Below are positions 43,258 to 58,474 of a stretch of 64,000 nucleotides of DNA, piece after piece. How positions within the stretch are numbered: position 1 is the first letter of the stretch; each line of letters starts with the position of its first letter. This stretch comes from Candidatus Aminicenantes bacterium (GTDB lineage Bacteria > Acidobacteriota > Aminicenantia > Aminicenantales > Saccharicenantaceae), in assembly GCA_017999365.1 (NCBI GenBank), contig JAGNLW010000001.1, positions 130,239 to 194,238 of the forward strand, read 5' to 3'. The notes beneath the pieces are model-generated. The model was not told where the DNA came from. It searched no databases and saw only the letters and a program-made list of their open reading frames with translations. A program made the translations under genes and the position numbers.

Positions 43258-43848
43258 ATGACGCCCGCAACGAGGTCCGTCCGCGCCGCGCTCGCCGCGG
43301 CCTTCGCCCTGGCCGTCCTTCTCGCGCCCGCCGCGTCGGCCGAGGTCTTCAAGGCCCGCATGCTGACCGGCATGGCCCCCGTCGAACCGCCCATGGTCAA
43401 CGTCCAGATGGAGGTCACCGGCTGGACGACGCTCGAGGAGATCCGCCAGTTCCAGGACATCCTCGGCTCGGCCGGCATCGACGCCTTCCTGGCCGCCTTC
43501 AACCAGGCCGACAAGGGCACCGTCCGGTTCATGACCACGCGCGGCTGGAACCTGCCCATTCACGCGGCCGTGGTCGTGCCTGACGACAAAGGCGGCAAGG
43601 TTGTGCGGCTGTTCTTCAACCGCCAAAGCTGGAACCCGGGCTCCTACAAGCCGGTCGGGCGGCACTATTTCATGGCCATCGAGCTCAAGCTCAACGAGAA
43701 GGGCAAGGGCGAGGGCCGGTTCTACGAGGATGCCCAGCTCAAGCTGAACTCCCTCGCGGCGACCGTCGAGATCGAGACCTACGAGTCGGCCCCCAAGCTC
43801 TTCCCGCAGGTCCAGGAAGTGGTCAAGAAGGCCGACGCGAAGAAGTAG
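43258..43848 (+). CDS. Secreted hypothetical protein (196 aa)
   Basis: Signal peptide (...APAASAEV). Lys-rich native-like composition. It is the only long ORF in a lower-GC stretch. Confidence 0.6.
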   Translation: MTPATRSVRAALAAAFALAVLLAPAASAEVFKARMLTGMAPVEPPMVNVQMEVTGWTTLEEIRQFQDILGSAGIDAFLAAFNQADKGTVRFMTTRGWNLPIHAAVVVPDDKGGKVVRLFFNRQSWNPGSYKPVGRHYFMAIELKLNEKGKGEGRFYEDAQLKLNSLAATVEIETYESAPKLFPQVQEVVKKADAKK

Positions 43849-45427
43849 CGTAGAGATCGCCGCCCTTCCCGTCGTAGATGACGAAGGCGGGCAGGTCGCG
43901 GACGACGATCCTCCGGACGGCTTCCATCCCCAGGTCGGCGAAGTCGATCGTCTCGCTCGAGACGATGTGCTCCTTGGCGATGAGCGCGGCCGCGCCGCCG
44001 ATCGTGCCCAGGAACACCCCTCCCCCGGCCTTCAGCGCCTCGACGGCGGGAGCGGTCCGGTTGCCCTTGCCGATGGAGACGAGCGAGGCCCCGGCCTTCA
44101 GGAAGTCGGCCATATAGCCGTCCATACGCTGGGCCGTGGTCGGGCCGAAGCTGCCCGAGGGCATCCCCTTGGGCGTCTTGGCCGGGCCGGCGTAATAGAC
44201 GGGATGGTGCTTGAGGTAATCCGGCAGGTCGCCCGTCTCGCGGAGGATCTTCGCCAGCCGGGCGTGGGCGATGTCGCGGGCCACGACGAGCGGCCCCGAG
44301 AGGCGGACCATCGTGCCTACGGCCAGGCCCTTGAGCTTGGCCAGGATCACGGGCATGGGTTGGCCGAGATCGACGGTCACGGCCGCCGCCGGCCCGGCCG
44401 TCCGGGCACCCTCTAGGAACCGGCCCGGCCGCCGCTCAACCTCTTCCAGGAAGACGCCGTCGGCCGTGATCTTGCCGCGCAGGCCGCGGTCGGCGTTGCA
44501 GGAGACGCCCAGTCCGATCGGGCACGATCCGGCGTGGCGGGGCAGGCGGACGAAGCGCACTTCGTGGGCGAGATAGCGCCCGCCGAATTGCGCACCGAGC
44601 TCCGTCTCCCGAGCCAGGCGCATGACGCGCTCCTCCCAATCGAGGTCGCGGAAGGCGTCGCCGCGCCGGCCGCCTATCTTCGGCAGGCCGTCGAGGAAGC
44701 CGGCCGAGGCCAGCTTGACGGCTTTCAGGGTCGCCTCGGGCGACAGGCCGCCGACGACGACGGCGACGCGGTAGGGCGGGCAGGCGGCCACGCCGAGGGC
44801 ACGGATCTTCTCGGCCAAAAAGGCTTCGAGGGCCCCGTCCTCGAGCCGGGCCTTGGACTCCTGGAACAGGGCGATCTTGTTGGACGAGCCGCCGCCTTTG
44901 GCCAGGAAGAAGAACCGGTATTCGTCGCCGGGGACGGCCTGGAGCTCGATCTGGGCCGGCAGGTTCGTCCCGGTGTTGACCTCGTCCATGACCGTGAGCG
45001 GAGCCATGACGGAATAGCGCAGGTTGCGCGTCCGGTAGACGCGGGACGCGGCCGCCGCCAGGACGTCCTCGTCCCGGCCGTCGGTGACGACGCGGAAGCC
45101 CCGGCCGCCGAAAACCTGGATGGAGCCGGTGTCCTGGCAGAGCGGCAGGACGCCCTCGGCGGCGATGACGGCGTTACGCAGGACCGCCTCGGCCACGAAG
45201 CGGTCGTTGCCGGAGGCGTCAGGGGCGTCGAGGACGCGGCGCATGGCCGCCAGGAAGTCCGGCCGTAGGAAGAAGGCCAGGTCGGCGAAGGCCTCGCCGG
45301 CCAGGGCTTCGAGGGCGCCGTCGGCCACGCGCAGGGCCGGCCGGCCGCCGCAGGCGGCCTTGCGGACGCCCCGCGCCGCGAGCTTCCGGTACTTGACGCG
45401 ATCGCGTCCCAGGGCGAAGGCGTTCAT
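43823..45427 (-). CDS. Class I (Fe-S) fumarate hydratase-family hydro-lyase, fused alpha+beta. Probably acts as mesaconase/fumarase given its location.
   Basis: CQDTGS, one of the Fe-S cluster cysteine motifs of class I fumarases/tartrate dehydratases. 534 aa single-chain form. It sits at the end of the methylaspartate cluster. Confidence 0.85.
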   Translation of the reverse strand: MNAFALGRDRVKYRKLAARGVRKAACGGRPALRVADGALEALAGEAFADLAFFLRPDFLAAMRRVLDAPDASGNDRFVAEAVLRNAVIAAEGVLPLCQDTGSIQVFGGRGFRVVTDGRDEDVLAAAASRVYRTRNLRYSVMAPLTVMDEVNTGTNLPAQIELQAVPGDEYRFFFLAKGGGSSNKIALFQESKARLEDGALEAFLAEKIRALGVAACPPYRVAVVVGGLSPEATLKAVKLASAGFLDGLPKIGGRRGDAFRDLDWEERVMRLARETELGAQFGGRYLAHEVRFVRLPRHAGSCPIGLGVSCNADRGLRGKITADGVFLEEVERRPGRFLEGARTAGPAAAVTVDLGQPMPVILAKLKGLAVGTMVRLSGPLVVARDIAHARLAKILRETGDLPDYLKHHPVYYAGPAKTPKGMPSGSFGPTTAQRMDGYMADFLKAGASLVSIGKGNRTAPAVEALKAGGGVFLGTIGGAAALIAKEHIVSSETIDFADLGMEAVRRIVVRDLPAFVIYDGKGGDLYATSSRRPS

Positions 45428-46371
45428 TCGTAGATCCCCTCGACGTCGATGAGGTCCTCGAAGGCGTCCTCCCCTTTCTTGCCGACGAGGCCGATGACGT
45501 AATATTCCTTGCTCATGTGGTCGTAGCGGTATTCCTTGATGAGGCGGAAGTTCTCGATCTTGCCGCTCGAGGAGACGTGGGTCCGCGTCCCCGTGCAGGG
45601 CATGGTGCTCTCGCCGATGCCCAGGGTGTTTTCGCCGCAGACGGACAGCGGCACGTCCTTGGCGATGATGGCCAGGACCTTCTTCTCGAGCTCGTGGAGG
45701 TCGACGTCGGGCCGCTCCTTGAAGTTCAGGACGAAGCCCTGGCGGACGTCGGAGTGCAGGGGCGGGAAGGGGATGCGGTAGTCCTTCTCCAGGACCATGC
45801 AGGTGATGTCCTCGGCCGAGTGGGCCATCAGCCGGTACCTGATGGTCTTGTCGACGACCTCCTTGATGGCCCGGGGGAAGGGCCCGAAGACCGTCGGCCG
45901 GGCGACGATGATCTCCTCGCCGATGCCGATGAGGACCTGGGCGTTGTGGCCCAAGGACTCGTAGACGAGGTCGAAGTGCTCGACGACGACCCGGCGGTGG
46001 TGGGAGACGGCCTTGAGGATGGCCTCCGCGAGCTCGTACTTCTGGTGGAAGGCCAGCTCGTAGCGGGCGTCGATGTGGAAGGTGTGGCCCGAGAAGGGGT
46101 CGGCGGGGTCGAAATCGTAGAGCGGCGTCGGCCGGACGTTGATGCCCTCGTCGTCGTTGGTCAGCTCGAGCCCGGGGAAGAGCCCCTTGATGAGGGTCGA
46201 CTTGCCCGAGCCCTCAGCGCCGAGGATACCGATGAGCAGGTCGGTCGGCGTCAGGTACTTCTGGGCCAGCTCGGCCGCGACCATGTACAGCCGGTTGCTG
46301 CCGCGGGGGGCGTAGTAGGTGGCGTAGAGGAGCGTCTCGCGGTGGACCGTGCCTTGGCCGAGCTTCATCAT
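45424..46371 (-). CDS. P-loop NTPase of unknown function
   Basis: Walker A GILGAEGSGKST. 315 aa. Overlapping start/stop with its neighbours (ATGA) on both sides implies an operon with the fumarase-like gene and the DUF1446/DUF4387 pair. Confidence 0.55.
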   Translation of the reverse strand: MMKLGQGTVHRETLLYATYYAPRGSNRLYMVAAELAQKYLTPTDLLIGILGAEGSGKSTLIKGLFPGLELTNDDEGINVRPTPLYDFDPADPFSGHTFHIDARYELAFHQKYELAEAILKAVSHHRRVVVEHFDLVYESLGHNAQVLIGIGEEIIVARPTVFGPFPRAIKEVVDKTIRYRLMAHSAEDITCMVLEKDYRIPFPPLHSDVRQGFVLNFKERPDVDLHELEKKVLAIIAKDVPLSVCGENTLGIGESTMPCTGTRTHVSSSGKIENFRLIKEYRYDHMSKEYYVIGLVGKKGEDAFEDLIDVEGIYE

Positions 46372-46391
46372 GGAGCGGCCTCCTCTCTCCC

Positions 46392-46703
46392 CTAGTAGGT
46401 CAGGCTCAGGAGCGGGGCGTGCTGCTGCGCGCCGTAGATGTCGGTCTCGCCCGCGTCGCCCGACGGGATGGGCCGGCGCATGGTGATCTTGAGGGCGTTG
46501 CTGGGCTCGAAGTAGACGATCTTGAGGATGTCGGCGACGGGCCGCTTGTAGAGCGCGGCGACCTTCCTCTTGGTGACGATGTTCCGGCGGCGGAAGAGCT
46601 CGAAGTGCTCGCGGTCCTTGAACAGGATGTCGAGCGTCAGCTCGTAGGGCCCGGAGTTCTTGGACCGGATGACCTTGGCGGCGCCGAGGATGCTGCGCTT
46701 CAT
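46392..46703 (-). CDS. Small protein (103 aa), DUF4387-like
   Basis: Start ATG 46703 with an AGGAG RBS. It is the in-frame tail of artefactual ORF 46392..47795. It sits directly downstream of the DUF1446-like gene, a pairing I recall as conserved. Confidence 0.5.
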   Translation of the reverse strand: MKRSILGAAKVIRSKNSGPYELTLDILFKDREHFELFRRRNIVTKRKVAALYKRPVADILKIVYFEPSNALKITMRRPIPSGDAGETDIYGAQQHAPLLSLTY

Positions 46704-48097
46704 GATATCTCCTTTCCGCCCCGGAAGACGACCGTCCGGGCTGGGAAATCGTCCGGACGGGCGACCGGCATCAGGTGATAGACCGAGAACTCGAAGACCT
46801 CGCCCATTTTGGCATCGGAGGGCGAGAAAGGCAAGGCCAGGTTGCCGGCCGTCGAGATGCGGCCGGGATAGCCGTAGTGGAGCAGGGTCGAGCGGGTCAG
46901 GCCGCAGACCGAGTCGGCCGCGGCCTGGGTCGGACCGACGGCCTCGATGACGAGGCCCAGCTCGTGCGAGCGGACCGTCTTCTCGGGCTCCAGGGCGCCC
47001 ATGACCCCGTCCTTGCCGTAGACGTGGAAGAAGACCCGGCCCTCGACCTTCTCGGCCGCCAGGATGTCCTTGACCTGGGACTCGACGCCGGCCAGGATGC
47101 CGTCGATCTCGCGGATCATGATGGGGTCGCGGGTGCCGGCCACGGCGATGGTCCGGTAGCCGACCCGGCGGACGCCCTCGAGCTTGACGAAATACCGCTC
47201 GGTCTCGACGTGGCGGCTGCCGCGGACCTCGACCCGGCCGCCGGGAAGCTCGGTGAACGAGCAGGCGGTCAGGTCGAGCTCGCCGCCGGGGCCCGGCAGG
47301 TGATAGGGATCGGTCTTCTCGTAGAGGGTGTGGGCGGCCGTCGAGACCTTGGTGAAGCGGCGCTTGGGATTGAGGGACTCGAGGACGAAGGAGTCCTCGG
47401 TGAGGGTGGCGAAGGCGCAGTCGGCCCCGGAGCCCGGCGTCGCGGCGATGGCCGCGCACTCCAGGATCTTGCCCATGTGGATGGCCAGGCCCGGGCCGAA
47501 GCCGCGGGCGATGGGCAGGGCGGCGAAGACGGCCGGGTCGTAGCAGCGGCCGGCCAGGACGACCTGGCAGCCGTCCGCCAGGGCCTTCTGGATGGGCTCG
47601 ACGCCCATCTGGCAGACGACGTTGACCGACTCGTCGAGGACGGCCTCGGTGAGCGGCGGGACATAGGTCAGCGGCACGATCTCGCCCTTGCGCAGGTGCC
47701 TGCGGACGACGGCCTTGGGGACGTCGGAGTAGATGATGCCCAGCGTGAAGCTCAGCTTCTCCTCGGCCGCGATCTCGCGGACGATCTCCTCGCACCAGTC
47801 GACGTGGGGCCGGGCCCCGCTGCCGCCGGCCGTGCCGACGACGACGGGGATGCCGCGCTCGACGCCGGCCTTCAGCATGAAGCGCAAGTCGCGCTTGACG
47901 GCCGAGCGGTCGGTGAAGGACTTGCCCGCCCCGAGGTAGTAGGGGCCGGGGTCGGTCGAGCCGGCGTCGGCCCCGATGAGGTCTGGCTCCTTGGCCAGGC
48001 CGGCCATGAAGGAGGCCTCCGGGAAGCCGTAGCCGAGGATGGCCGTCGTCGACAGGACGCGGAACTCTTTCTTGGCTTTTTTCGGCCGGGCGGCCAT
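46700..48097 (-). CDS. DUF1446 (AtuA-like) family protein, function unknown
   Basis: 465 aa. AGGAGG RBS. Its stop overlaps the start of the small downstream gene. The family assignment is from recollection of the conserved DUF1446+DUF4387 gene pair and is uncertain. Confidence 0.55.
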   Translation of the reverse strand: MAARPKKAKKEFRVLSTTAILGYGFPEASFMAGLAKEPDLIGADAGSTDPGPYYLGAGKSFTDRSAVKRDLRFMLKAGVERGIPVVVGTAGGSGARPHVDWCEEIVREIAAEEKLSFTLGIIYSDVPKAVVRRHLRKGEIVPLTYVPPLTEAVLDESVNVVCQMGVEPIQKALADGCQVVLAGRCYDPAVFAALPIARGFGPGLAIHMGKILECAAIAATPGSGADCAFATLTEDSFVLESLNPKRRFTKVSTAAHTLYEKTDPYHLPGPGGELDLTACSFTELPGGRVEVRGSRHVETERYFVKLEGVRRVGYRTIAVAGTRDPIMIREIDGILAGVESQVKDILAAEKVEGRVFFHVYGKDGVMGALEPEKTVRSHELGLVIEAVGPTQAAADSVCGLTRSTLLHYGYPGRISTAGNLALPFSPSDAKMGEVFEFSVYHLMPVARPDDFPARTVVFRGGKEIS

Positions 48098-48098
48098 G

Positions 48099-49352
48099 TC
48101 AGGCCTCCTTCCCCGTCCGCGAGCGGAGCACGGCCAGGACCCGCTCCATCTCGTTGCGGACGATCATGTAGCCCTCGTCGAAGCCCATGCCCGGCTTGGC
48201 CAGCAGGCGCTCGGCCCGGGCGGCCACGGCGGCGTGGACGCAGGCCTTGGCCGAGACCTCGGTCTCGTTGCAGGTGCCGCCCTGGTAGGCCTCCATGCCG
48301 TGGGCCCGGCAGTGGAGGACGGCCTCGATGGTGTTCTGGATGCCGCCGAGGTCGGGCGTCTTGATCTGGACCATGTCGCAGGACTGGGCGGCCGTGAAGT
48401 CGACGACGTCCTCGTAGGTGTTGCACCACTCGTCGGCGACGATCTTGACCCGGGAGCCCTTGGCCCGCAGCTCGCGGCGGATGGCGGCCAGGAGCTCGAT
48501 CTGTCGGGGCTTCTCGCCGGCGTCGACGGGCCCCTCGATGTAGAGCGGGAACTCGCCGGCCACGGGCTCGAGCGAGGCCAGGTAGTCGGCCACGCGGGCC
48601 GGCTTGAGGGCGCAGATGACGCCGATCGTGCCGTAGACGTCGATGTGGAGGGTCGGGACGTAGGCGGGGTCGGTCCGGACCTTGCGGATGCGGTCGACGA
48701 GCCAGCCGACGTACTCGCGGAGGAGCTCGCCCTCGTGGCCGAGCTTGGTCTTGACGTTGTTGATGAGGGCGTGGGGCAGGACGTCGACCCGCTTCATGAT
48801 CATCTTGTCGGCGTTGATGTAGCGGTCGTCGCCGCTCTGCCCGAAGATGGGCACGCGCTCGGCGACGACGGGCAGGCCGTACTCCTCGCAGACGACCTCG
48901 GCCATGATCCGGCCCGTGGCCAGGGCCCGGGCGTGGAGCAGGGCCTGGGACAGGCCGTAGCGGATGGCCGTGTGCAGGCGCCGCCCCCCGAACTCGAGGG
49001 CCTCGAACCGGGCGGCCAGGTCGCGGAAGCGGCCGACCTCGGCGCCCTCGAGAAGGGGCCGTATCTCGCGCTCGAGGAGGGGCAGGTAATCGGCGGCGAG
49101 GAACAGGGGGTCGCGGCCGCCGGCCCCGGAGTACTGGACGGCGGCGCAGTCACCCAGGGCCCAGCTGCCGTTCTCGAGCTGGAGCAGGACGGACAGGGCC
49201 TCGCCGGCGACCCGGACGGCCTTGAAGCCGGGGGTCTCGGGCTTGCCTCCGTAGACGGCGCCGTCGTGCGGCGCGCCGGATTTGATGGCCTGCTGGTCGT
49301 CGAAATAGAAGGCCGACGACCCGGGCACGAACAGGGCTTTGACGATCTTCAT
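48099..49352 (-). CDS. Methylaspartate ammonia-lyase (beta-methylaspartase)
   Basis: Start MKIVKALFVPGSSAFYFDDQQAIK (MAL N-terminal signature). 417 aa enolase-superfamily protein. It is the tail of artefactual ORF 48099..50237. Confidence 0.9.
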   Translation of the reverse strand: MKIVKALFVPGSSAFYFDDQQAIKSGAPHDGAVYGGKPETPGFKAVRVAGEALSVLLQLENGSWALGDCAAVQYSGAGGRDPLFLAADYLPLLEREIRPLLEGAEVGRFRDLAARFEALEFGGRRLHTAIRYGLSQALLHARALATGRIMAEVVCEEYGLPVVAERVPIFGQSGDDRYINADKMIMKRVDVLPHALINNVKTKLGHEGELLREYVGWLVDRIRKVRTDPAYVPTLHIDVYGTIGVICALKPARVADYLASLEPVAGEFPLYIEGPVDAGEKPRQIELLAAIRRELRAKGSRVKIVADEWCNTYEDVVDFTAAQSCDMVQIKTPDLGGIQNTIEAVLHCRAHGMEAYQGGTCNETEVSAKACVHAAVAARAERLLAKPGMGFDEGYMIVRNEMERVLAVLRSRTGKEA

Positions 49353-50800
49353 TTGGGCCTCCCGATGAGCTTGCCTTTGCTGATGGCATAGATGTCGTCG
49401 GTCACCATCTGGAAGGTGACCGGGCGCCCCTCGGTCCGGGACCGCTCCTGCAGGCGCTCCTTGTGGAAGTTCATGATGTCGTCGCCGAGGGGCAGGGCGC
49501 CCTTGGCGAAGAGGCGGATGTAGCCCTCGTTGTCGCGGATGGGCAGGACCTTGCCCTTGTTGTAGACCGACGGGGCGAAGGGCACGTCGAGGATGCCGGA
49601 GGCGAAGGCCCGGACGACGCCCTGGACGAGGTCGTCGCCGGCGGCCGACAGGACGGCCCGCATGAGGGCGTCGACCTCGCGGCGGATGAGGTCCTTCTCG
49701 CGGTCGACGACGGCGTTGTCGGTGCAGATCCTCTGGTCCTGCATCATGCTCAGGACCTGGCGGGTGGCCTTGAGCCCGGCCGCGTTGGCCTCCTTGGTCG
49801 GGATGCCCATGGCCTCGTGGGGGGACTTGACGATGGTCTTCTCGACCTTGCCGGCGGCGGCGACGAAGGCGCCCGTGCTGATGACCGAGAAGGCCTTGGC
49901 CTCGTCCTCGGGGAAGCCGCCCATCCACTGGTGGAAGACCAGGGTCAGGTCGTAGTCGGAGAAGCCGGCGGCGCGGAAGTACTCGTCGGCGAGCTCCCGG
50001 AGGGAGGCCAGGGCGGCCAGGTCCTGCAGGACGTTGCCGCCCTGCCCGTAGCCGAGGGTCAAAGATTTGACGCCCTGCTCGAGGGCCAGCAGGCCCTCGA
50101 GGATGGCCACGGTGTGGGAGATGAAGGGCGGCACGAGGGTCCCCGTCAGCGGGCCGAAGGGCTCGCGGTTGACGCTGATGCCGTTCTCCTCGTAGTAGCC
50201 GGTCAGCCGGTCGACGTACTGCCAGTGGCGCAGGCACTCCCCGACCTCGACCTTCTTGGCGTAGGGGATGTTGTAGGAGATGCCGCCGCCCTCGTAGGAC
50301 GTGAAGCCGCCGGCCAGGGAGATCTCGGCCAGCAGCCGGGCGTCCGGGGTGCCGTGGCGGACCTGGGTCGGCCGGGAGACGGCCTCGGTGACCTTGCGGC
50401 AGCCGTCGCGGCCGTGATTGACGGCCGGGAAGCCGTTGAGGAGCGAGGTGCCGGCGGCCCGCGACTTCTCGATGCCGCGGGCGGCCTCTTCGTAGCGGTT
50501 CTGCCGCGTGTAGGCGTCGATCGTCGTCGGCAGGAGGTCGGCCGTGCCCTCGGTCTCGAGGAAGCGGAGCAGGCGGATGTGGTCGTCGATGAGGGCCACG
50601 CCGGCCCGCGGTTGGATGAGGGTGCGGCCCTCGGCCTTGGCCTTGGCCATGGCTTTGGCGAAGTTCTTTTCCGCGGGCAGGGCGCGCTGGTAGCGCAGGC
50701 CGTCCTCGATGTCGGCGACGTCCCGGCCGGTCGGCCAGGAGTCGAGCACGGCCTGGCGCTGGGCCAGAAAGTCCTTCCAGGGCATGCGGTGGTGTGTCAT
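49349..50800 (-). CDS. glmE: Glutamate mutase epsilon (E, catalytic) subunit / methylaspartate mutase E chain
   Basis: 483 aa, the typical GlmE/MutE size. Conserved along its whole length. Start overlaps the MAL start region (ATGA). Confidence 0.9.
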   Translation of the reverse strand: MTHHRMPWKDFLAQRQAVLDSWPTGRDVADIEDGLRYQRALPAEKNFAKAMAKAKAEGRTLIQPRAGVALIDDHIRLLRFLETEGTADLLPTTIDAYTRQNRYEEAARGIEKSRAAGTSLLNGFPAVNHGRDGCRKVTEAVSRPTQVRHGTPDARLLAEISLAGGFTSYEGGGISYNIPYAKKVEVGECLRHWQYVDRLTGYYEENGISVNREPFGPLTGTLVPPFISHTVAILEGLLALEQGVKSLTLGYGQGGNVLQDLAALASLRELADEYFRAAGFSDYDLTLVFHQWMGGFPEDEAKAFSVISTGAFVAAAGKVEKTIVKSPHEAMGIPTKEANAAGLKATRQVLSMMQDQRICTDNAVVDREKDLIRREVDALMRAVLSAAGDDLVQGVVRAFASGILDVPFAPSVYNKGKVLPIRDNEGYIRLFAKGALPLGDDIMNFHKERLQERSRTEGRPVTFQMVTDDIYAISKGKLIGRPK

Positions 50801-50811
50801 GGGTGTCCTCG

Positions 50812-52230
50812 TTATGCCTTTCGATCGGAGAGGGGCGTCAGGAGCTTGAGCCCGGCGACGGCGGCGCGGGCGGCCGCGTCGGGGAATTCCGCCGCCAGGT
50901 TCCCCAACAAGGGGAAGAGGTATTGGGCGTCCGCGTAGCAGGCCGGGTCCTCGGGGACCAGGTGCCGCGTGTCGGGGTCGGTCGAGCCGGGGGCGCGGAC
51001 CTCGAGCAGCAGGGACGGGTCATCGTGGCCGGCCAGGAAGCCGCCCGAGCCGACGAGGCGCGAGACCCGGCGGAGGTCCTTGCCGCGTTGGACATCGAAG
51101 CCGCCCTGGGGCGTGAAGACCCGTTGGACGACGCCGGCGTGCCGCAGGGCCGAGGCCCGGACGCAGGCGGCGGCCAGGAGGCGGTCGAAGCGCCGGCCGC
51201 GGTCGTCGGCGGGCAGGCGGTCGGTGGCCCGGCTGACCTCCTCGACATAGGCCTTGAGCGCGGCCGGCGTCTCGCCGAGGGCGGCCAGGCGCGACTCGAG
51301 GAAGGCGGCCTCGGACCGGTACAGGGCTTCGGCCGAGACCCGCAGGCCCAGGTCCCCCTCGACGGTCCGCTTGAGCCGGGGCTCGCGCAGGCCGCGCAGG
51401 AGGACCGTGTCGCCGCCGTGGAACGATTCCGTGTGCGAATAGAAGTCGGTCGTGGCCCCGCCCATGTCGATGAGGGCGAAGTCCTGCCAGCCGGGGACGC
51501 GCTCGCCGATCGTGCGGACGAGCTCGAAGACGGCCAGCGGGGTCGGCAGGGGCTCGCGGCCGGCCGCGGCCGCGACGCCGGACAGGCCCTTGCCGTCGAC
51601 GATGCGCTCGAGGAAGGCCCGACGGATGACCTCGCGGGCCGGCTCGATGTCCAGGACGCCGACCTCGGGCATGACGTTGGCGGCCGTGACCAGATCGAGC
51701 CCGGCCAGGAGGCGGGCCACGTCGTCGCGGACCTTGCGGTTGCCGGCGTAGAGGTGGACGGCCGGCAGGGCCGCTTCGGCCAGGCGGGCGGCGTTGTGGA
51801 GGACGATCCGGGCATTGCCGCCGTCGGTGCCGCCGGTGAGGAGGACGATGTCGGGGGCGGCCGCGGCCAGCTCGGCCAGGTCGTCGGAGGCCAGCTCGTA
51901 GGAGAAGGCCCGGACGACCTTGCCGCCGGCCGAGGTCGCGGCCATGCGGGCGACGGAGAGCGTCAGGTCGGGGGTCAACCCGACGGCGGCGATCTTGAGC
52001 CCGCCGCGGGCCGACGAAGACCAGTGGACGGGGACGGCCGAGGCGTCGGCCGCGGGCAGGCCGGCGCAGACGGCTTCGCGGACGGCGGAGAAACCGCGGC
52101 CGAGGTCGTCGACGGTGGTCGGCCGGACGGCCCGGGCGACCGGGCGGAGCTCCTCCCCGGCCAGGGAGAACAGGCCTCCCTTGGTGTAGGTCGACCCGAT
52201 GTCGACGGATAGGAGGAGCCGGGCGTCCAT
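50812..52230 (-). CDS. glmL: Glutamate mutase component L (GlmL/MutL, ASKHA-fold reactivase/chaperone)
   Basis: Start MDARLLLSVDIGSTYTKGG (MutL-type DxGST motif) with an AGGAGGAG RBS. 472 aa. It is the tail of artefactual ORF 50812..52443. Confidence 0.8.
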   Translation of the reverse strand: MDARLLLSVDIGSTYTKGGLFSLAGEELRPVARAVRPTTVDDLGRGFSAVREAVCAGLPAADASAVPVHWSSSARGGLKIAAVGLTPDLTLSVARMAATSAGGKVVRAFSYELASDDLAELAAAAPDIVLLTGGTDGGNARIVLHNAARLAEAALPAVHLYAGNRKVRDDVARLLAGLDLVTAANVMPEVGVLDIEPAREVIRRAFLERIVDGKGLSGVAAAAGREPLPTPLAVFELVRTIGERVPGWQDFALIDMGGATTDFYSHTESFHGGDTVLLRGLREPRLKRTVEGDLGLRVSAEALYRSEAAFLESRLAALGETPAALKAYVEEVSRATDRLPADDRGRRFDRLLAAACVRASALRHAGVVQRVFTPQGGFDVQRGKDLRRVSRLVGSGGFLAGHDDPSLLLEVRAPGSTDPDTRHLVPEDPACYADAQYLFPLLGNLAAEFPDAAARAAVAGLKLLTPLSDRKA

Positions 52231-52232
52231 CG

Positions 52233-52652
52233 TCAGTTCTTCCGGGCCTCGATGTCCTGGCGGAGCAGGCGGACGGCCTCGGCCAAGTCGACCTGGGGCG
52301 GGAAGACCCGGTCGAAGCCCATGGCCTTGAACTTCCGCTCGACCTCCTCGAAGGGGGTCTTGCCGACGACGAGGTTGCCGCCGGCGTAGAGCAGGACCGA
52401 CTCCAGGCCGCGCTCGACGGCCTTCTGGCGCAGGCCCTCGCAATCGATGAGGCCGTGGCCGTAGAGCGAAGAGACCAGGATGGCCTTGGCGTCCGACTCG
52501 ACGGCGGCGTCCAGGAACTCGTCCTGGCTGACCATGACGCCGAGGTTGACGACGTGGAAGCCGGCCTCCGTGAAGTAGGCGTCGAGGATCTTGTTGCCGA
52601 CCGAGTGGCAGTCGGCCCCGATGACGCCCAGGACGATGCGCGGGGCGTCCAT
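52233..52652 (-). CDS. glmS: Glutamate mutase sigma (S, B12-binding) subunit
   Basis: 139 aa. RIVLGVIGADCHSVGNKIL is the cobalamin-binding DxHxxG region of MutS/GlmS. Confidence 0.9.
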   Translation of the reverse strand: MDAPRIVLGVIGADCHSVGNKILDAYFTEAGFHVVNLGVMVSQDEFLDAAVESDAKAILVSSLYGHGLIDCEGLRQKAVERGLESVLLYAGGNLVVGKTPFEEVERKFKAMGFDRVFPPQVDLAEAVRLLRQDIEARKN

Positions 52653-53656
52653 CACAGGCTCCGGGGGCCTTCGTCGAGGAGCGTCCTCAGGCGCTCCTCC
52701 ACGTTGAGCAGGGACCCCCGCTCGATCTGGTAGTCGAACGGGATGATGGTCCCGCCTCGCTCGGTGAACTCCTGGAGGGCGGCCAGGTGCTCGCGGTCGC
52801 GCTGCAGGGAATAGCCGGCCGGGATGATGACGGCGTCGAGCCCGGCGATGAAGGCGCCGAGGCGGTCGAGCTCGGACCAGAACAGCGGGGCCACGGCGGA
52901 GCCGGGCACGTCGAAGGCCTTGAGGTGGTCGAGGACGATCTCCAGGAAGCGCCGGGACTCGCAGACGACGCCGATCTTCTGGGACGGCGTCAGGCGGGCC
53001 AGGGCGATGATGGAGTTGCGGGTCGGGGCCATGGCCACCTGGACGAGCTTGGCCTTGAGGCCGGGGAAGCGCTCCAGGACCTCGCCGAAATGGGTCGTCG
53101 TCGTCAGGACCAGGTCGAAGTTCTGCAGGCGCTCGGCGCCCTGGGGATCCTCGAGCAGGTCGTCGACCAGGAACTTGGCCATGTTGACCCGGGGGATGAT
53201 CTGGAACTGGCGCTCGATGATGGACAGGGTCTCGGGGTTGCAGTCGACGGCGGCCACGTTGAGGTTCTGGAGGTCGTCCTCGCGCCCGAGCAGGCGGAGG
53301 TCGAAGAAGATGCGGATGTCGTGGGCGCTGAACTTGAGGCGGGCCAGCTCGTCGATGAGCTCGTCGATGAGGCGGAGGGCCTTGTCCTTGCGGCTCTCGG
53401 CCGGCGAGGTGCGCTCGGGGGCGACGAAGCTGCCCCGGCCGGGTGCGGCCTCGATGAGGCGGCGCCGGACGAGCTCCTCGTAGGCCTTCTTGACCGTGCC
53501 CCGGGCGGTGTGGAGGTCCCCGGCCAGGTCGCGCTCGGCGGGCAGTTTCTGGCCCGGCTTCATGCGGCCGGACTTGATCTGCTTCTCGAAGAACTCCATG
53601 ATCTGCTGATAGGCCGGCTTGGCCCCAGGAAATTTCTCGAGCTTGAAACCGTCCAT
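52652..53656 (-). CDS. GntR-family transcriptional regulator with C-terminal ligand-binding domain
   Basis: N-terminal winged HTH (...GQKLPAERDLAGDLHTARGTVKKAYEEL...). 334 aa. Sits at the head of the glutamate mutase operon. Confidence 0.8.
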   Translation of the reverse strand: MDGFKLEKFPGAKPAYQQIMEFFEKQIKSGRMKPGQKLPAERDLAGDLHTARGTVKKAYEELVRRRLIEAAPGRGSFVAPERTSPAESRKDKALRLIDELIDELARLKFSAHDIRIFFDLRLLGREDDLQNLNVAAVDCNPETLSIIERQFQIIPRVNMAKFLVDDLLEDPQGAERLQNFDLVLTTTTHFGEVLERFPGLKAKLVQVAMAPTRNSIIALARLTPSQKIGVVCESRRFLEIVLDHLKAFDVPGSAVAPLFWSELDRLGAFIAGLDAVIIPAGYSLQRDREHLAALQEFTERGGTIIPFDYQIERGSLLNVEERLRTLLDEGPRSL

Positions 53657-53668
53657 GCTTACTCCTTA

Positions 53669-53798
53669 TGGTATGTACCAATAATAATTGGACTATACCT
53701 TTTATATACCGCCTGATAATGTTTGTCAAGTGAAAATTATGTCAAAGGTATGGACCAATAAGAAACCACTTGCCATCGCGGTCCACCATATATATAAT
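53669..53798 (+). promoter_or_regulatory. Divergent control region: direct repeats GGTATGTACCAATAA (53670-53684) and GGTATGGACCAATAA (53747-53761), plus TTGCCA-17-TATAAT promoter (53770-53798)
   Basis: AT-rich 160-bp intergenic region between the GntR gene and the giant ANL-GNAT gene. Repeat 1 contains the perfect palindrome GGTA-TG-TACC (GntR-type operator). A third degenerate copy (GGTATAGTCC, reverse) lies at 53690-53699. Confidence 0.45.
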
Positions 53799-53815
53799 GA
53801 GGGGGAGGGAATGTC

Positions 53816-56800
53816 ATGAAAGCGGAGCCTTCCCGTTACGCCCGGGACCTCCAGCGCCTGCTCGAGGCCTGGGCGGGACCGAAGGGAAAACGGCGGCCGG
53901 GGCCCGGGACGACCGGGAACAGCGCCCTGGAGCTCCTGGAGCGGGTGGAGCGGGACCTCTCCGGGGGGCGGGGTCCATCTCGCGAGGCTGGCCGGGAGTT
54001 CCTGCGGATCACCTCCGATCCGCGCTTCCTCCGCGAGCTCGGCCGCACCGACCTCCAGACACGTTGGGCCGAGGCTTGCTTCGCCCTCATCCAAGCCACG
54101 GGATACGGCATCGGCGATCTCTTCGAGGACCGGGTCCGGGAGACGCCCGGCCGGGTCTTCCTCCAGGACATGGCGGTCTCCCCTCCCCGTCTCTGGACCT
54201 ACGAGGCGGCGGCCCGCCACGTCCGCGAGACCGCGGGGGCCCTCTACGCCCTGGCCGACGCGGAGGGGATCGAGCCGCGTCTGGCCATCTACGCCGAGAA
54301 CCACGCCGAGGGCGCCGTCGCCGACCTGGCCTGTCTTTGCACCGACATCCTCGACACCCCCGTCAATCCCCATTTCAGCCTGGAGAACGTCGTCGGCGTC
54401 TGCGACGCACTGGCCATCAACATGGTCCTGGCCAACGACCGGGAGCGGATCGGTCTTCTCCGCGAGGCCCGCCGGCGCGCGGCCCGGCCGTTCCGCATCC
54501 TGGTCACCGATCCGGGCCTGAACGACGGCGGAGAGGACATCGTCTTCCTGACCGAGTACGCCAAGCAGCTCGGCGCCCGCGACGTCGAGGCCCGCCTGGC
54601 CCGGCGCCGGCGCTTCCGTCTGGACGAAGTGGCCACGGTCATGTTCACCTCGGGTTCGACGGGCCGGCCCAAAGGCGTCTCGTTCTCCATCTACAACCTG
54701 ATCAGCAAGCGCTTCGCCCGGGCCGCCGCCCTGCCGCTGGTCGGCCCCGAAGAGGTCTTCCTGAGCTTCCTGCCGCTCTACCACACCTTCGGCCGGTACC
54801 TCGAGCTCCTGGGCACGATCTATTGGCGAGGAACCTACGTCTTCGCCGGCAATCCCTCGGCCGAGACCCTGTTCAGGCTCATGCCCAAGGTCCGGCCGAC
54901 CGGCTTCATCAGCGTCCCGGTTCGCTGGGCCCAGCTCCACGAGCGCTGCCTCGAGCGCCTCGACGCGGCGCCGGCCGGGGCCGACGCCGGGGCCATCGTC
55001 CGCGAGGTCGTCGGGACGCGCCTGGCCTGGGGGTTGTCGGCCGCCGGCTACCTGGATCCCCGGGTCTTCCGCTTCTTCCAGGCCCACGGCGTCGAGCTCA
55101 TGAGCGGCTTCGGCATGACCGAGGGCACCGGCGGCATGACCATGACCCCGCCCGGCGGCTACGTCGACAACTCCCACGGCCTGCCCCTCCCGGGCCTCAC
55201 GGCCCGGCTCGGGGAGAACGGCGAGCTCCAGGTCTCGGGCCATTACGTCGCCCGCTACCTCGAGGACAAGGGCCCCGGCGACACCGTCCCCGTCCCGACG
55301 GGCGACCCTGAGCGCGACCACTGGTTCGCGACCGGCGACGTCTTCGAGCGCCAGGCCAACGGCTACTACCAGATCGTCGACCGCATCAAGGACATCTACA
55401 AGAACAACCGCGGCCAGACCGTGGCCCCGCGCAAGGTCGAGGACAAGTTCGTCGGCGTGCCGGGCATCAAGCGGACCTTCCTCGTCGGCGACGGCCGGCC
55501 CTACAACGTCCTGTTCATCGTCCCGGACGCGGCCGACCGGGTCCTGGCCGGCGGGCTGGCCCGGGAGAGCGACCGGGAGAACCTCCGCGAGTATTTCCGG
55601 CGCATCGTCACGGCCGCCAACGAGGGCCTGGCCCCGTACGAGAGGGTCGTCAACTTCGAGGTCCTCGGGCGGGACTTCGATCCCGAGGCCGGCGAGGTGA
55701 CGGCCAAGGGCTCCTACAACCGCAAGCGCATCGAGGCCGCCTTCGCCGGGGCCATCGACGACCTCTACCGACGCCGCGCCGTCGACCTTCGCGGCCAGGG
55801 CCTGACCGTCCGTCTGCCGCTCTGGTTCTTCCGCGACCTGGGCATCCTCGAGGACGAGATCGTCCGCGACCGCGACGGCCTGCGGGACCTCAACAGGGGC
55901 CTGCGCCTGCCCCTGCGGCGCGGCTCGGACGGGCGGACCTGGCTCGTCGGCGACCTCGAGTACGAGATCGAGGGCGGCCTCCTCGACCTCGGGCTGTTCG
56001 CTCGCCAGCCCGTCCTCTGGGTCGGCAACCCCTCGCTGGCCGCCTTCGCTCCCTGCAAGGAGGGCTGGGACCTGCCCCTCGAGCCGGCCACCGGCTGGGT
56101 GTCCCTGCCGCGGCGCCGGGCCCGGACCTACACGGAGGCCGAGACGCCGCCTCCGGCCAAGCTCGGCGACGCCCGCCTCGGCCGCCTCCACGTCCTGCTG
56201 GCCAAGCTCCTGTTCTCGCCCGAGGACGTCCCGGACGCCGTCCTGGCCGAGGTCGAGCGCGTCTTCTACGAATCGCCCCTGCGGACCGAGGAGCTCGTCC
56301 GGGCCCGCCTGCGGGCCATGGCCTGGCACCCGAGCCCGCGGCTGCGCTGCTGGGCCTACCGCATCCTTCTCATCCACGACCCGGACATCGACTACGGCCA
56401 GGTCATGCCGGCCTTCGTCAGTTCGGGCCTGCCCTTTCTCGACCGGGAGAGCATCGACGAGATCGCCTCGGCCCGTCTCGGACGAGGCCGGCTGGACGCC
56501 TTCCGGGTCCGCCTGCGGGCCTACCGCGAGACCATGCCCTGGCCGGTCACCGCGCCCTACCGGCGCCAGTTCGAGCGCATCTTCCGCCTGCTCGTCGACC
56601 TGGCCGGGCGCGAGCCCTCCTTCTTCAGTTCCGTGCGGGCCGAGCTGGCCAGCTGGGTCCTGCACCGGGCCGACCCCGAACTGGCCCGGACGGCCGAGCG
56701 CCACCTCGACCGCATGGTGGCCCGGTTCGGCCGGAACGCCGCCGCCGGCACGCGCGCCGCGTCCGAACGCAGGCCGCCGCGCCCGATCTGCGACGACAGC

Positions 56801-58474
56801 CTGACGGCCGCCGAGGCCCGCCGGGTCCGGGCCGTCCTGGCCCTGCCCTCGTTCCTGCGCGACTCGGTCCGGCTGGCCTCCGGCGTCGAGGACTTCGAGG
56901 CCGGCCAGATCGCCGCCGACGGCCTGTGGGTCTCGCGCATCTACAGCGCGCCGCGCCGTTCGACCTATCGGGTCAGCGTCAACACCGCCGCCGGGCGCCA
57001 CTACGACCTCAAGCTCGTCCTGCCCGAGGGGCCGCGCGACGGGGCCGAGCGCGAGACCCGGCTGTGGTCGGCCGTGCTCTCGGACCAGCCCGGCGGGCCG
57101 CGCGTCCTGCCGCCGCTCGGGGCGACCGACGAGCGGACGGGCGCCGTGACCTGGCGCCACCTCGGCGACCTGACCGTCTGGGAGAAGATCCGCGAGTTCG
57201 CCGGACGGCGGGCCGTGGACGGGCCGCTGCCCGCGCCTTCGGTCTGGCGCAAGCTCTACGTCGAAGCCATGTCGGCCCTCTTCGGGGCCTGGCAGACGAG
57301 CGGCCGGCGCATCCTGCCGGGCCGTATCTCGCCGGTCAACGTCGTCGTGCCCGACCTCGAGTTCCGGGACGACACCTTCCTGGCCTCGATCGACGGCTGG
57401 CGTCCCTCTTCGGGCCCGCTGTCGCTCGTCCGCCCCATGGTCGACGGCTTCTACCGCCGGCCGGCGGCCAACTACCCCTGGCTCAAGGACCACCTCGACC
57501 TCGACTGGATCTTCGACGCCGCCTACGACGCCCTGGGCCGGGAGCGGGCCGCGGCCTTCTTCGACGCCCTCCAGCCCGAACTCGACCGCCGGCCGCTGCC
57601 CTCGCTGGCGGGGCAGGACCTGGCCGTCCGCCTGCGCCGGTACCGGGCCGAGTTCGCCCGGACCTACGTCTTCCCCATGCCGCCGTTGAGCGCGGTCGAG
57701 GCCTACCGCGAATGGCGGCAGGGCAACCCGCTGGCCCCGTCGCGGGACCGGGAGCGCAAGGTCCTCGACCTCTACCGGCGCTACTCCCTGGAGCGTTTCC
57801 CGGAGATCGTCCGCTACTACCTCTACCGTCACACCTATTTCGCCGGGCGGAGCGAGCGCATCGAAGCCCTCTTCGACCGCCTCTTGGCGCGGCTGGGCAC
57901 ATCCCTGGACGAGCCGGCCGTGCAGCGGACGGAGCTTTCGGACCTGCAGTCGGCCCTGCGCGACGAGCTCGACCGCCTCGTCTTCAGCCGTATGGTCTTC
58001 CCGCGCCTCGACCCGGACAGCCGTTTGGACGTCAGGACCAAGGGCGAAGAAGGCGAACGGCGGGTCGTCGTGCGGTCCTTCCTGCTCGACCGGGCCGGGC
58101 GGACCTACACCTTCAACGAGACCCTCGACCCGGCCGAGATCGGCCAGGCCTACCGGCTGTTCTTCAAGGAGAACTACCCCAAGATCGTCTCCCAACAGGA
58201 CCGACACTTCGTCCTCAAGGACGGGCAGGAGCGCATCGTCGGGGGGCTGTGCTACCGGATGTTGTCGAACCGGGTGGCCTGGATCGACGTCATCGCCGTG
58301 ACCTCGAACCTCAAGTCATCGGGACTGGGCGGGGCGGCCCTGGACGACTTCTGCGCCCGCATGGCCAGCCAGGGCGTGCCCCTGGTCATGACCCACCTCT
58401 ATCTGCCGGGGTTCTTCCTGAGGCACGGCTTCCGCCTGGACAAGCGCTGGGGCGCGCTGGTCAAGACGCTTTGA
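53816..58474 (+). CDS. Giant multidomain protein: N-terminal AMP-binding (ANL) adenylating domain, ~900-aa central region, C-terminal GNAT acetyltransferase domain
   Basis: GGGGGAGGGA RBS. AMP-binding motif MFTSGSTGRPKGV and later ANL blocks (GFGMTEGTG..., ...WFATGD...). The C-terminus has the GNAT beta-alpha-beta pattern ...VGGLCYRM...WIDVIAVTSNLKSSGLGGAALDDFC. 1552 aa. Confidence 0.75.
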   Translation: MKAEPSRYARDLQRLLEAWAGPKGKRRPGPGTTGNSALELLERVERDLSGGRGPSREAGREFLRITSDPRFLRELGRTDLQTRWAEACFALIQATGYGIGDLFEDRVRETPGRVFLQDMAVSPPRLWTYEAAARHVRETAGALYALADAEGIEPRLAIYAENHAEGAVADLACLCTDILDTPVNPHFSLENVVGVCDALAINMVLANDRERIGLLREARRRAARPFRILVTDPGLNDGGEDIVFLTEYAKQLGARDVEARLARRRRFRLDEVATVMFTSGSTGRPKGVSFSIYNLISKRFARAAALPLVGPEEVFLSFLPLYHTFGRYLELLGTIYWRGTYVFAGNPSAETLFRLMPKVRPTGFISVPVRWAQLHERCLERLDAAPAGADAGAIVREVVGTRLAWGLSAAGYLDPRVFRFFQAHGVELMSGFGMTEGTGGMTMTPPGGYVDNSHGLPLPGLTARLGENGELQVSGHYVARYLEDKGPGDTVPVPTGDPERDHWFATGDVFERQANGYYQIVDRIKDIYKNNRGQTVAPRKVEDKFVGVPGIKRTFLVGDGRPYNVLFIVPDAADRVLAGGLARESDRENLREYFRRIVTAANEGLAPYERVVNFEVLGRDFDPEAGEVTAKGSYNRKRIEAAFAGAIDDLYRRRAVDLRGQGLTVRLPLWFFRDLGILEDEIVRDRDGLRDLNRGLRLPLRRGSDGRTWLVGDLEYEIEGGLLDLGLFARQPVLWVGNPSLAAFAPCKEGWDLPLEPATGWVSLPRRRARTYTEAETPPPAKLGDARLGRLHVLLAKLLFSPEDVPDAVLAEVERVFYESPLRTEELVRARLRAMAWHPSPRLRCWAYRILLIHDPDIDYGQVMPAFVSSGLPFLDRESIDEIASARLGRGRLDAFRVRLRAYRETMPWPVTAPYRRQFERIFRLLVDLAGREPSFFSSVRAELASWVLHRADPELARTAERHLDRMVARFGRNAAAGTRAASERRPPRPICDDSLTAAEARRVRAVLALPSFLRDSVRLASGVEDFEAGQIAADGLWVSRIYSAPRRSTYRVSVNTAAGRHYDLKLVLPEGPRDGAERETRLWSAVLSDQPGGPRVLPPLGATDERTGAVTWRHLGDLTVWEKIREFAGRRAVDGPLPAPSVWRKLYVEAMSALFGAWQTSGRRILPGRISPVNVVVPDLEFRDDTFLASIDGWRPSSGPLSLVRPMVDGFYRRPAANYPWLKDHLDLDWIFDAAYDALGRERAAAFFDALQPELDRRPLPSLAGQDLAVRLRRYRAEFARTYVFPMPPLSAVEAYREWRQGNPLAPSRDRERKVLDLYRRYSLERFPEIVRYYLYRHTYFAGRSERIEALFDRLLARLGTSLDEPAVQRTELSDLQSALRDELDRLVFSRMVFPRLDPDSRLDVRTKGEEGERRVVVRSFLLDRAGRTYTFNETLDPAEIGQAYRLFFKENYPKIVSQQDRHFVLKDGQERIVGGLCYRMLSNRVAWIDVIAVTSNLKSSGLGGAALDDFCARMASQGVPLVMTHLYLPGFFLRHGFRLDKRWGALVKTL

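Follow-up and report, generated by a model that had tools for sequence, protein, structure and literature searches.

The 64,000-nucleotide stretch of Candidatus Aminicenantes DNA analysed here (assembly GCA_017999365.1, contig JAGNLW010000001.1, positions 130,239 to 194,238; hereafter the window) carries on its forward strand a gene for a 1552-residue protein. In this protein an adenylate-forming (ANL) domain and a C-terminal GNAT acetyltransferase-type domain are separated by a long middle region. This gene, called the big gene below, and the features around it are collected in Table 1. Because the window is about 70% G+C, long spurious open reading frames (ORFs) are expected in it. The big gene is genuine and not a high-GC artefact: its G+C content by codon position is 0.72/0.49/0.94, its translation is that of a normal protein, and more than 120 homologues span its full length (44-95% identity, 96-100% coverage). 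An antisense ORF of 1493 amino acids (53726..58207, minus strand) overlaps nearly the whole gene. It was rejected as a high-GC artefact on the grounds of its low-complexity translation, rich in Gly, Ala, Pro, Arg and Asp, and of the third-position G+C of 0.94 on the coding strand of the big gene. Such an ORF is a trap for gene calling based on ORF length.

Table 1. Positions of the big gene, the modules of its product and the surrounding features, numbered from the first nucleotide of the window
Feature	Position	Strand	Evidence or remark
Complete coding sequence, 1552-residue ANL / beta domain / HEAT-like / predicted pseudokinase / GNAT protein	53816..58474	+	Stop codon included; ORF list and translation, third-position G+C, homologues
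ANL large N-terminal subdomain, residues 103-478	54122..55249	+	Pfam AMP-binding; TSGSTGRPKG (A3), LPLYHTFGR (A4), GFGMTEGTGG (A5)
ANL small C-terminal subdomain, residues 532-653	55409..55774	+	Pfam AMP-binding_C_3; VDRIKDIYKN hinge (A8) just upstream; A10-region Lys in E-x-T-x-K-G
Beta-rich domain with short helices, residues 655-764	55778..56107	+	AlphaFold pLDDT 85-95
All-helical HEAT/ARM-like domain, residues 786-981	56171..56758	+
Protein-kinase-like fold with helical C-terminal extension, residues 994-1399	56795..58012	+	Canonical catalytic residues absent
GNAT domain, residues 1400-1552, Gcn5/PCAF-like sequence type	58013..58471	+
Putative sigma-70-like promoter of the big gene, TTGCCA-17-TATAAT	53770..53798	+	Consensus scan, 11/12 matches
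Shine-Dalgarno-like AGGGGGAGGG	53800..53809	+	6 nt before the ATG of the big gene; read from the sequence
Three GntR/HutC-type operator-like half-palindromes	53669..53757	.	Between the divergent GntR and big-gene promoters
Operator-like site TGGTATGTACCA	53669-80
Operator-like site TGGACTATACCT	53689-700
Operator-like site AGGTATGGACCA	53746-57
Divergent GntR-family regulator	52652..53656	-	Pfam GntR, E 1.7e-15; tblastn census
Methylaspartate-pathway cluster (MutL, glutamate mutase E, methylaspartate ammonia-lyase, AtuA-like, 315-residue protein, class I fumarase/mesaconase-like)	43823..52443	-	Pfam

When the full protein is searched against Pfam, the ANL domain, which extends over residues 103-653, is matched by AMP-binding (E 9e-46, 156.9 bits, cut-off 29.9) and AMP-binding_C_3 (E 2e-9, 38.3 bits, cut-off 20.8). 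The third match, Acetyltransf_1 at residues 1453-1538 (E 5e-5, 23.9 bits, cut-off 20.7), is marginal yet above threshold. The ORF, the Pfam matches and the homologues thus bear out the order given in the first-pass annotation: AMP-binding, a large middle and a C-terminal GNAT in one fusion. At E ≤ 1 the protein has no Pfam match to a nucleoside diphosphate (NDP)-forming acyl-coenzyme A (CoA) synthetase, carrier-protein, condensation or reductase domain. The same annotation was therefore right in setting the architecture apart from the NDP-forming lysine acetyltransferase Pat and from nonribosomal peptide synthetases (NRPS).

Within the protein, conservation is highest in the ANL domain (windowed column conservation 0.7-0.84). 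This domain possesses the features of the ANL superfamily, namely Pfam scores above the gathering threshold, a C-terminal subdomain and the core motifs A3, A5, A7, A8 and A10. Motifs A3, A4, A5 (GFGMTE), A7 (ATGD) and A8 (VDRIKDIYKN), together with the A10-region lysine, are at least 90% conserved among 115 homologues. This lysine, in the context E-x-T-x-K-G, is nearly invariant and probably equivalent to the A10 catalytic lysine. Motifs retained to this degree suggest an ANL domain capable of catalysis. The solved structures nearest to it are those of carboxylic acid reductase A domains (6oz1, E 2e-19; 5msp, E 2e-17), a feruloyl-CoA synthetase, malonyl-CoA synthetases and oxalate-CoA ligases. 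None of the NCBIfam equivalogs (FadD11, FadD3, MenE, malonyl-CoA synthase and others) is matched, all 25 of the 25 listed models scoring far under their cut-offs. The best of them, FadD11, reaches 127.6 bits for a cut-off of 950, and the nearest group is that of the long-chain ligases.

The C-terminal domain exhibits the GNAT fold and the motif A (Q/R-x-x-G-x-G/A) of that superfamily. The corresponding pyrophosphate-binding motif, [K84/Q25/R3]1500-x-x-G1503(111/115)-x-G1505(101/115), has a lysine in place of Q/R in most sequences. Gcn5, KAT2A and PCAF are its sole sequence relatives among all PDB chains (Tetrahymena GCN5, E 6e-7), and a strand GG(I/L)C(F/Y)R is common to the domain and its Gcn5-type relatives. 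Judged by their motifs, both end domains look alive, that is, catalytically plausible.

Between these two domains lie about 745 residues for which neither Pfam nor the PDB offers a sequence match. Pfam reports nothing within residues 654-1452 at E ≤ 1, and a phmmer search of the middle region against the PDB found nothing real. The same was true when Pfam was run on each of 21 diverse kinase-like regions, and a profile built from these 21 regions gave, against the PDB, only a spurious match to a designed Kelch repeat. The uncharacterised core of about 900 residues announced by the first-pass annotation therefore does lack sequence matches, but it is smaller (about 745-800 residues). Likewise, the annotation's remark that the middle has no placeable motif stands at the sequence level and not at the level of the fold, where three parts can be told apart: a beta domain, a helical domain of HEAT-like type and a predicted pseudokinase of protein-kinase-like fold. 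These come from AlphaFold2 models built from a 70-sequence alignment, with a predicted local distance difference test score (pLDDT) of 86.8 and a predicted template modelling score (pTM) of 0.83 for residues 655-1552, and of 89.1 and 0.88 for residues 655-1400. From secondary structure and fold searches, the models divide into four modules (Table 1). At these scores the middle region is a confidently modelled scaffold.

The beta domain is the most conserved part of the middle core (RIPxWFFRD, GDLEY, ARQPxLWxGNP, GWD) and holds 13 of the 32 positions that are invariant among 70 sequences in the 898-residue C-terminal part. Its invariant surface includes R673, D674, Y716, Q731, W735, N738 and W751. 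No relative of it was identified by sequence or by fold. A domain of about 110 residues so extremely conserved and without identifiable relative may hide an additional function.

The kinase-like module shows the bilobal fold of the protein-kinase-like superfamily and lacks the β3 lysine, HRD aspartate and DFG aspartate of active kinases, the equivalences resting on the order of secondary structure elements rather than on residue-level superposition. The β3 lysine position, 1066, is variable (K40/Q30/R24/E11) and is preceded, two residues before, by an almost invariant aspartate. The equivalent of the catalytic loop reads (I/V)-P-G-x-x-S-P-x-N in the main branch of the family, with an invariant glycine replacing the HRD aspartate; the loop asparagine is kept. 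The DFG-equivalent aspartate, in 'SIDGW', is not conserved. Since the canonical catalytic residues are absent, the modelled domain is classed as a pseudokinase, and for such a fold without catalytic residues a part in structure or recruitment is a better fit than a third chemical activity. A distant branch of the family (1580-1710 amino acids) often carries the loop (A/Q)DP(S/T)PxN(I/V)(I/V)VP, mapped at alignment columns ~170-200 (family residues ~1163-1195), with an aspartate at the catalytic-loop position. This loop (ADPSPxN) is inconsistent, and the branch is also without the DFG aspartate. It recalls the loops of atypical kinases. The ancestor of the module may have been an active atypical kinase. 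An identity with AceK, the isocitrate dehydrogenase kinase/phosphatase, was considered because of the isocitrate dehydrogenase neighbour in Bacteroidales (see below) and is unsupported, there being no structural match to the AceK kinase and regulatory domains. PI3K/PIKK proteins, in which a helical domain accompanies a kinase domain, were considered as well, as candidate structural relatives.

The family is widespread. A species census, in which one genome per GTDB species was scanned with the C-terminal 898 residues (the searched part), found that at least 488 species in at least 8 phyla encode a relative. Carriers of the architecture have proteins of about 1525-1710 amino acids. The 80 loci listed, almost all from metagenome-assembled genomes (MAGs), are labelled Aminicenantes, other Acidobacteriota, Bacteroidales (Prolixibacteraceae, Draconibacterium), Ignavibacteria, Kapaibacteria, Zixibacteria, NC10/Methylomirabilis, Gemmatimonadota, Fibrobacteraceae, Polyangiaceae and Thermoanaerobaculia. 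Marinimicrobia are also carriers of the fusion. The closest full-length homologue, P0001, is 95% identical to the 1552-residue protein, and its 90%-identity cluster holds proteins of Aminicenantes/Acidobacteriota MAGs. Among the matches listed in the census, the closest is L034, 97% identical over the searched part. This locus and three others (L014, L017 and L045) are labelled 'uncultured Eubacteriales bacterium'. Their big genes are 45-97% identical to ours over the searched part, and L034, L017 and L045 share the GntR/glutamate-mutase synteny described below; the labels are probably taxonomic mislabels of Aminicenantes MAGs.

An exhaustive phmmer search of residues 655-1400 against 1.84 billion representatives recovered 269 clusters only (E ≤ 1e-3), and among these representatives the middle module was never seen outside the ANL-GNAT fusion. 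Full-length members measure about 1500-1710 amino acids with the middle module at about 640-1390, and shorter matches look like fragments. Members at just 21-28% identity keep AMP-binding, AMP-binding_C_3 and GNAT. Because the middle module was seen nowhere else and such distant members keep both ends, the fusion is, as judged from the homologues, obligate, ancient and length-constrained.

The sources give the family no functional name, only 'AMP-binding protein', 'long-chain acyl-CoA synthetase' or 'GNAT family N-acetyltransferase', and full-text literature searches found no paper on the family or the architecture. A 2021 review of bacterial GNAT lysine acetyltransferases distinguishes five architectures, none with an AMP-forming domain (PMC8556138). 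The first-pass annotation had considered that the architecture might prove common and already characterised. Half of this is correct: with at least 488 species representatives in many phyla the architecture is common and widespread, yet uncharacterised.

The genomic context of the big gene differs among lineages. Precomputed gene calls of diverse members revealed no shared partner gene, and clustering of all flanking ORFs of 78 loci gave no universal neighbour, only lineage-specific blocks and a recurrent citrate synthase. Without fixed operon partners, the encoded machine appears self-contained. The neighbour that recurs across phyla is citrate synthase: its gene turns up, in five arrangements, within the fetched flanking sequence of 21 of the 90 loci. 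The first-pass annotation had not noticed this link to citrate synthase and the oxidative Krebs branch. In some 14-17 Bacteroidales loci, citrate synthase and aconitase genes are transcribed away from the big gene, aconitase being the nearer, and an isocitrate dehydrogenase gene follows the big gene on its strand; 69-182 bp separate the big gene from its upstream neighbour and 25-204 bp from its downstream one. Elsewhere citrate synthase lies immediately upstream on the same strand (L031, L063 and L090, the last from the distant branch with a 78-bp gap between called genes), convergent downstream (L022, L033, L035 and the Marinimicrobia locus L086) or divergent upstream (L002/L023, L020). It is found 2.6 kb upstream in Ignavibacteriales L051 and 5.7 kb upstream on the same strand in L057. 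By a rough estimate, assuming a single-copy gene in a 4-Mb genome, chance would place citrate synthase this close in well under 1% of loci. Phylogenetic non-independence lowers the count of loci and not the number of independent arrangements.

The citrate synthases adjoining the big gene are of three sequence types. Those of L090, L022, L031, L033, L035, L057, L063 and L086 were compared against the L048 and L002 types. Type 1, shared by Bacteroidales, a Marinimicrobia locus and the distant-branch locus (L090, 5619-6923), has internal identities of 61-88%, type 2 is that of the Bacteroidales citrate synthase-aconitase block, and type 3 is found in L002, L020, L023 and L051. Other neighbours point to the same citrate/2-oxoglutarate/glutamate node: a DASS di/tricarboxylate transporter directly beside the big gene in L065 (Zixibacteria) and L086 (Marinimicrobia), a glutamate dehydrogenase near it in L086, and a phosphoenolpyruvate carboxykinase in L012.

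In Aminicenantes the partner is different. In the tblastn census the big gene adjoins a GntR regulator gene in the window and in 16 loci labelled Aminicenantes/Acidobacteriota or mislabelled (45-97% identity over the searched part). MutL and GlmE follow GntR in most of these 16 loci, and most are divergent. Two loci, L024 and L045, instead carry big gene, GntR, MutL and GlmE in that order along a single strand; given the two orientations, the adjacency has survived an inversion. The divergent pairing with the GntR gene of the glutamate-mutase cluster, to which the first-pass annotation drew attention, is thus real, but it is a feature seen in Aminicenantes loci only.

The two divergent genes are separated in the window by an AT-rich spacer of 159 bp. 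The promoter that the first-pass annotation had assigned to the big gene itself is found there, with 11 of 12 consensus positions matched and followed by a strong Shine-Dalgarno-like sequence, and the CTTGC-N17-TATAAT pair is conserved across orthologous Aminicenantes intergenic regions when the spacers are compared side by side; it would function as a sigma-70-type promoter. Between it and the GntR gene lie three operator-like sites. The pattern WGGWMTRKWCCW occurs in the 64-kb window at these three sites only, for 0.17 occurrences expected, a statistic that is biased since the pattern was derived from the sites themselves. A 15-mer, GGTATGKACCAATAA, is present twice. The three-site layout recurs in orthologous spacers; the exact 12-mer is found in just one other Aminicenantes locus, so that conservation is visible only when the intergenic regions are read side by side. 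The boxes resemble the TGGTCTAGACCA-type operators of HutC-class GntR regulators and DasR/NagR-type boxes. The recurrence of the operator-like sites and of the promoter suggests that the big gene and the GntR/glutamate-mutase unit may be under the control of one and the same regulator.

The GntR gene heads the methylaspartate-pathway cluster, whose 315-residue protein has no Pfam match. A separate gene for the small B12-binding subunit (GlmS) was not seen within the cluster (43823-53656), and about 77 N-terminal residues of the MutL ORF are not matched by Pfam. Upstream of the cluster, the window encodes a 552-residue Kelch-repeat beta-propeller protein (41339-42994, plus strand) and a homologue of sodium:neurotransmitter symporters (SNF; 36312-37988, plus strand). 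A 550-residue ORF (39400-41049, minus strand) matches the eukaryote-type protein-arginine deiminase family (Pfam PAD, PF03068, E 1e-80), which is not known to be common in bacteria, and differs from the Porphyromonas-type enzyme. The genes downstream of the big gene are convergent. The first encodes a membrane-type 4Fe-4S protein (Fer4_5, Fer4; 58461-59405, minus strand), and its 3' end overlaps that of the big gene by 14 bp, which leaves no room for a terminator between them. A 3' overlap of 13-14 bp with a minus-strand ORF of about 300-390 amino acids recurs in L008, L013, L017 and L034.

Starting from what is directly observed, that is, the identities and folds of the domains, the conservation of the ANL and GNAT motifs, the catalytic loss in the kinase-like module, the obligate fusion and the link to citrate synthase, we propose with a probability of roughly 40% that the protein is a self-supplying Pat-like acyltransferase that modifies protein lysines at the acetyl-CoA/citrate/2-oxoglutarate/glutamate node. 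It would be a cytosolic single-polypeptide machine for acyl activation and acyl transfer. The chemistries of the end domains are naturally consecutive, from acid to acyl-AMP to acyl-CoA and then from acyl-CoA to an N-acyl product. Driven by adenosine triphosphate (ATP), the ANL domain would adenylate a carboxylic acid and most likely then form the acyl-CoA on the spot. The Gcn5-like GNAT would then place this acyl group, or one drawn from the surrounding acyl-CoA, on an amino group, most probably that of a protein lysine, either of partner enzymes such as citrate synthase or of its own ANL domain. The beta and HEAT-like domains and the pseudokinase would form a rigid scaffold that couples both active sites and recruits or senses the target. 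Such a protein would in effect parallel the lysine acetyltransferases of Pat type on AMP-forming lines, its synthetase domain being live and that of Pat dead. The identity of the acid, CoA as the intermediate carrier, a protein lysine as the acceptor and the regulation of carbon flux as the outcome are what we infer from these observations.

Several lines of evidence favour this proposal: by sequence the GNAT domain is of the Gcn5/PCAF kind, recognition of proteins is typical of pseudokinase and HEAT scaffolds, the family behaves like a housekeeping gene and not like part of a biosynthetic cluster, and in Pat, too, a synthetase-like domain and a GNAT are united in one protein that controls enzymes of central metabolism (PMC8556138). 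Other observations weigh against it. Gene neighbourhood indicates an association with the citrate node and not what happens there. The motif scan of the flanks found no sirtuin- or HDAC-type deacylase motif in any of them, a weak negative since only motifs were scanned. In the alignment obtained with phmmer, the position of the Gcn5 catalytic glutamate (E122 of Tetrahymena GCN5, strand β4) is occupied by Trp or Phe; a conserved D/E (108/115) follows two residues later, probably on the same face of the β-strand. The GNAT signature is weak in the Aminicenantes clade, where Pfam scores are marginal and many homologues are without a precomputed GNAT match. Finally, the ANL domain is of the long-chain/COG1022 type and not acetyl-CoA-synthetase-like, and the position which we take to be that of the acetate-gating tryptophan of Acs appears to be Gly (G-M-T-E versus W-Q-T-E, A5 motifs aligned by hand). 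The glycine argues against an acetate-specific pocket, and from both features the acyl group is probably not acetate.

The near-invariance of the A10-region lysine and the conservation of the ANL domain above all other parts would also suit a self-regulating acyl-CoA synthetase. Its ANL domain would activate a carboxylate feeding or draining the citrate/glutamate node, and at high acyl-CoA the fused GNAT would acylate the catalytic lysine of the ANL domain, in cis or across subunits, with the pseudokinase and HEAT-like modules setting the geometry or sensing a metabolite. Such an enzyme would close the AcsA-AcuA or Acs-Pat feedback loop within one covalent chain, and the fusion of two proteins reported to act as a complex (PMC11255334, PMC13121692) fits Rosetta-stone logic. 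The big gene stands alone, and its neighbours are metabolic enzymes rather than regulators, as this explanation would have it. We consider it unlikely, given that an autoinhibitory switch would hardly seem to call for a strongly conserved scaffold of some 745 residues and that the motif scan found no deacylase nearby that could reset it. Moreover, the motif recognized by Pat and AcuA, PxxxxGK, is absent, the protein having LTPKGSxNRK instead.

An improbable alternative on the present evidence is an N-acyltransferase of primary metabolism, one of the two functions suggested at the outset, the other being a protein-modifying enzyme. In this case the ANL domain would activate an acid of the Krebs cycle or the methylaspartate pathway, or a fatty acid, and the GNAT would couple the activated acid to an amino compound, for instance glutamate, to yield an N-acylated amino acid or amine. 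Biosynthetic-cluster context, exporters and tailoring genes are lacking around the family, the GNAT is closest to Gcn5/PCAF only (at the sequence level), and a two-step ligase has no obvious need for a HEAT and pseudokinase scaffold conserved without length variation across phyla. We know of no N-acyl metabolite common to Aminicenantes, Bacteroidales, Zixibacteria, Marinimicrobia and NC10. Between metabolite and protein as acceptor, the evidence leans slightly to the protein-modifying, regulatory side. The protein could finally be a metabolite-sensing scaffold in which ANL, GNAT or both only bind acyl-CoA, AMP or ATP, the output being contact of the HEAT-like and pseudokinase modules with citrate synthase or another enzyme. 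Serving as interaction scaffolds is typical of pseudokinases and HEAT repeats, the weak GNAT signature in the clade of the window protein is in line with such a role, and the dead NDP-forming domain of Pat is a precedent. This is very unlikely, since all ANL catalytic motifs and the GNAT acyl-CoA motif are kept over a range of ~21-95% identity, which is unexpected of pure binding modules.

Bacterial protein acylation is now explained by five GNAT architectures, and those with a synthetase-like domain (Pat) carry a dead NDP-forming module; the family would add a sixth and mechanistically different class, in which a live AMP-forming synthetase is joined to a Gcn5-like transferase through a pseudokinase scaffold. 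It would also offer an example of a bacterial pseudokinase serving as scaffold within a metabolic enzyme. The family is carried by hundreds of species, mostly uncultured, from anaerobic and sediment phyla that dominate their environments, and the repeated location beside genes for citrate synthase, aconitase, isocitrate dehydrogenase and the glutamate pathway leads to a testable hypothesis on how carbon entry into the oxidative Krebs branch is gated. A more specific version of the proposal, quite unlikely in all its details, is an ATP-driven device of a new kind that makes a non-acetyl acyl-CoA, for instance from an acid of the Krebs cycle or the methylaspartate pathway such as citrate, citramalate or mesaconate, and passes the acyl group straight to the Gcn5-like domain. 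That domain would mark citrate synthase, neighbouring enzymes or glutamate with it, the pseudokinase recognizing the target. Bacteroidota, Acidobacteriota, Zixibacteria, Marinimicrobia and related groups would then possess a new switch, or a new metabolite, by which the entry of carbon into the Krebs cycle is controlled.

Fold and motifs place the protein in the ANL, GNAT and protein-kinase-like superfamilies, and it matches no NCBIfam equivalog. Several known systems resemble parts of it. Among solved structures, its ANL domain is closest to the A domains of carboxylic acid reductases and of NRPS-like ANL fusions, which are likewise large multidomain proteins. Membership of these groups was rejected, as phosphopantetheine carrier, condensation, thioesterase and reductase domains are all absent from the Pfam matches and the region following the ANL domain folds as beta, HEAT-like and kinase-like modules. 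Bud32/PRPK, RIO and APH-type atypical kinases have no detectable sequence similarity to it. It differs from them in having no conserved β3 lysine, catalytic-loop aspartate or DFG aspartate, in an acidic residue near the lysine position, in retaining the loop asparagine alone, and in an extra helical extension of about 150 residues. The Gcn5-type GNAT of eukaryotic Gcn5/KAT2A is the nearest sequence relative of the C-terminal domain. Gcn5/KAT2A acting with ACSS2 or the 2-oxoglutarate dehydrogenase complex shares the concept of an acyl-CoA made beside the transferase. In that eukaryotic pairing, however, acyl-CoA comes from a second protein and histones are modified, whereas here supplier and transferase form one bacterial chain.

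Salmonella Pat and E. coli PatZ, like our protein, are large cytosolic single chains with a synthetase-related N-terminal part, a C-terminal Gcn5-related GNAT and a link to central carbon metabolism (PMC8556138). The N-terminal part of Pat is, however, a homologue of NDP-forming enzymes of about 700 residues that has lost its catalytic histidine, whereas the big protein has an AMP-forming ANL domain with all motifs intact. Pat is devoid of the beta domain, the HEAT-like domain and the pseudokinase, which together intercalate about 745 residues here, and the two proteins are unrelated in sequence except for the GNAT. Assignment to the Pat types (I/II) was rejected, the NDP-forming domain (CoA-binding/ATP-grasp) by which they are defined (PMC8556138) giving no Pfam match at E ≤ 1. 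In AcsA-AcuA and Acs-Pat, an ANL synthetase and a GNAT work together, and AcsA and AcuA form a synthetase-acetyltransferase complex in which AcuA acetylates the catalytic lysine of the synthetase, as reported (PMC11255334). These are separate proteins with an acetyl-CoA synthetase carrying PxxxxGK, whereas the big protein is a fusion with an ANL domain of the long-chain/COG1022 type that is without this site motif. The big protein probably works like Pat or like the AcsA-AcuA complex, with a live AMP-forming synthetase and a new scaffold.

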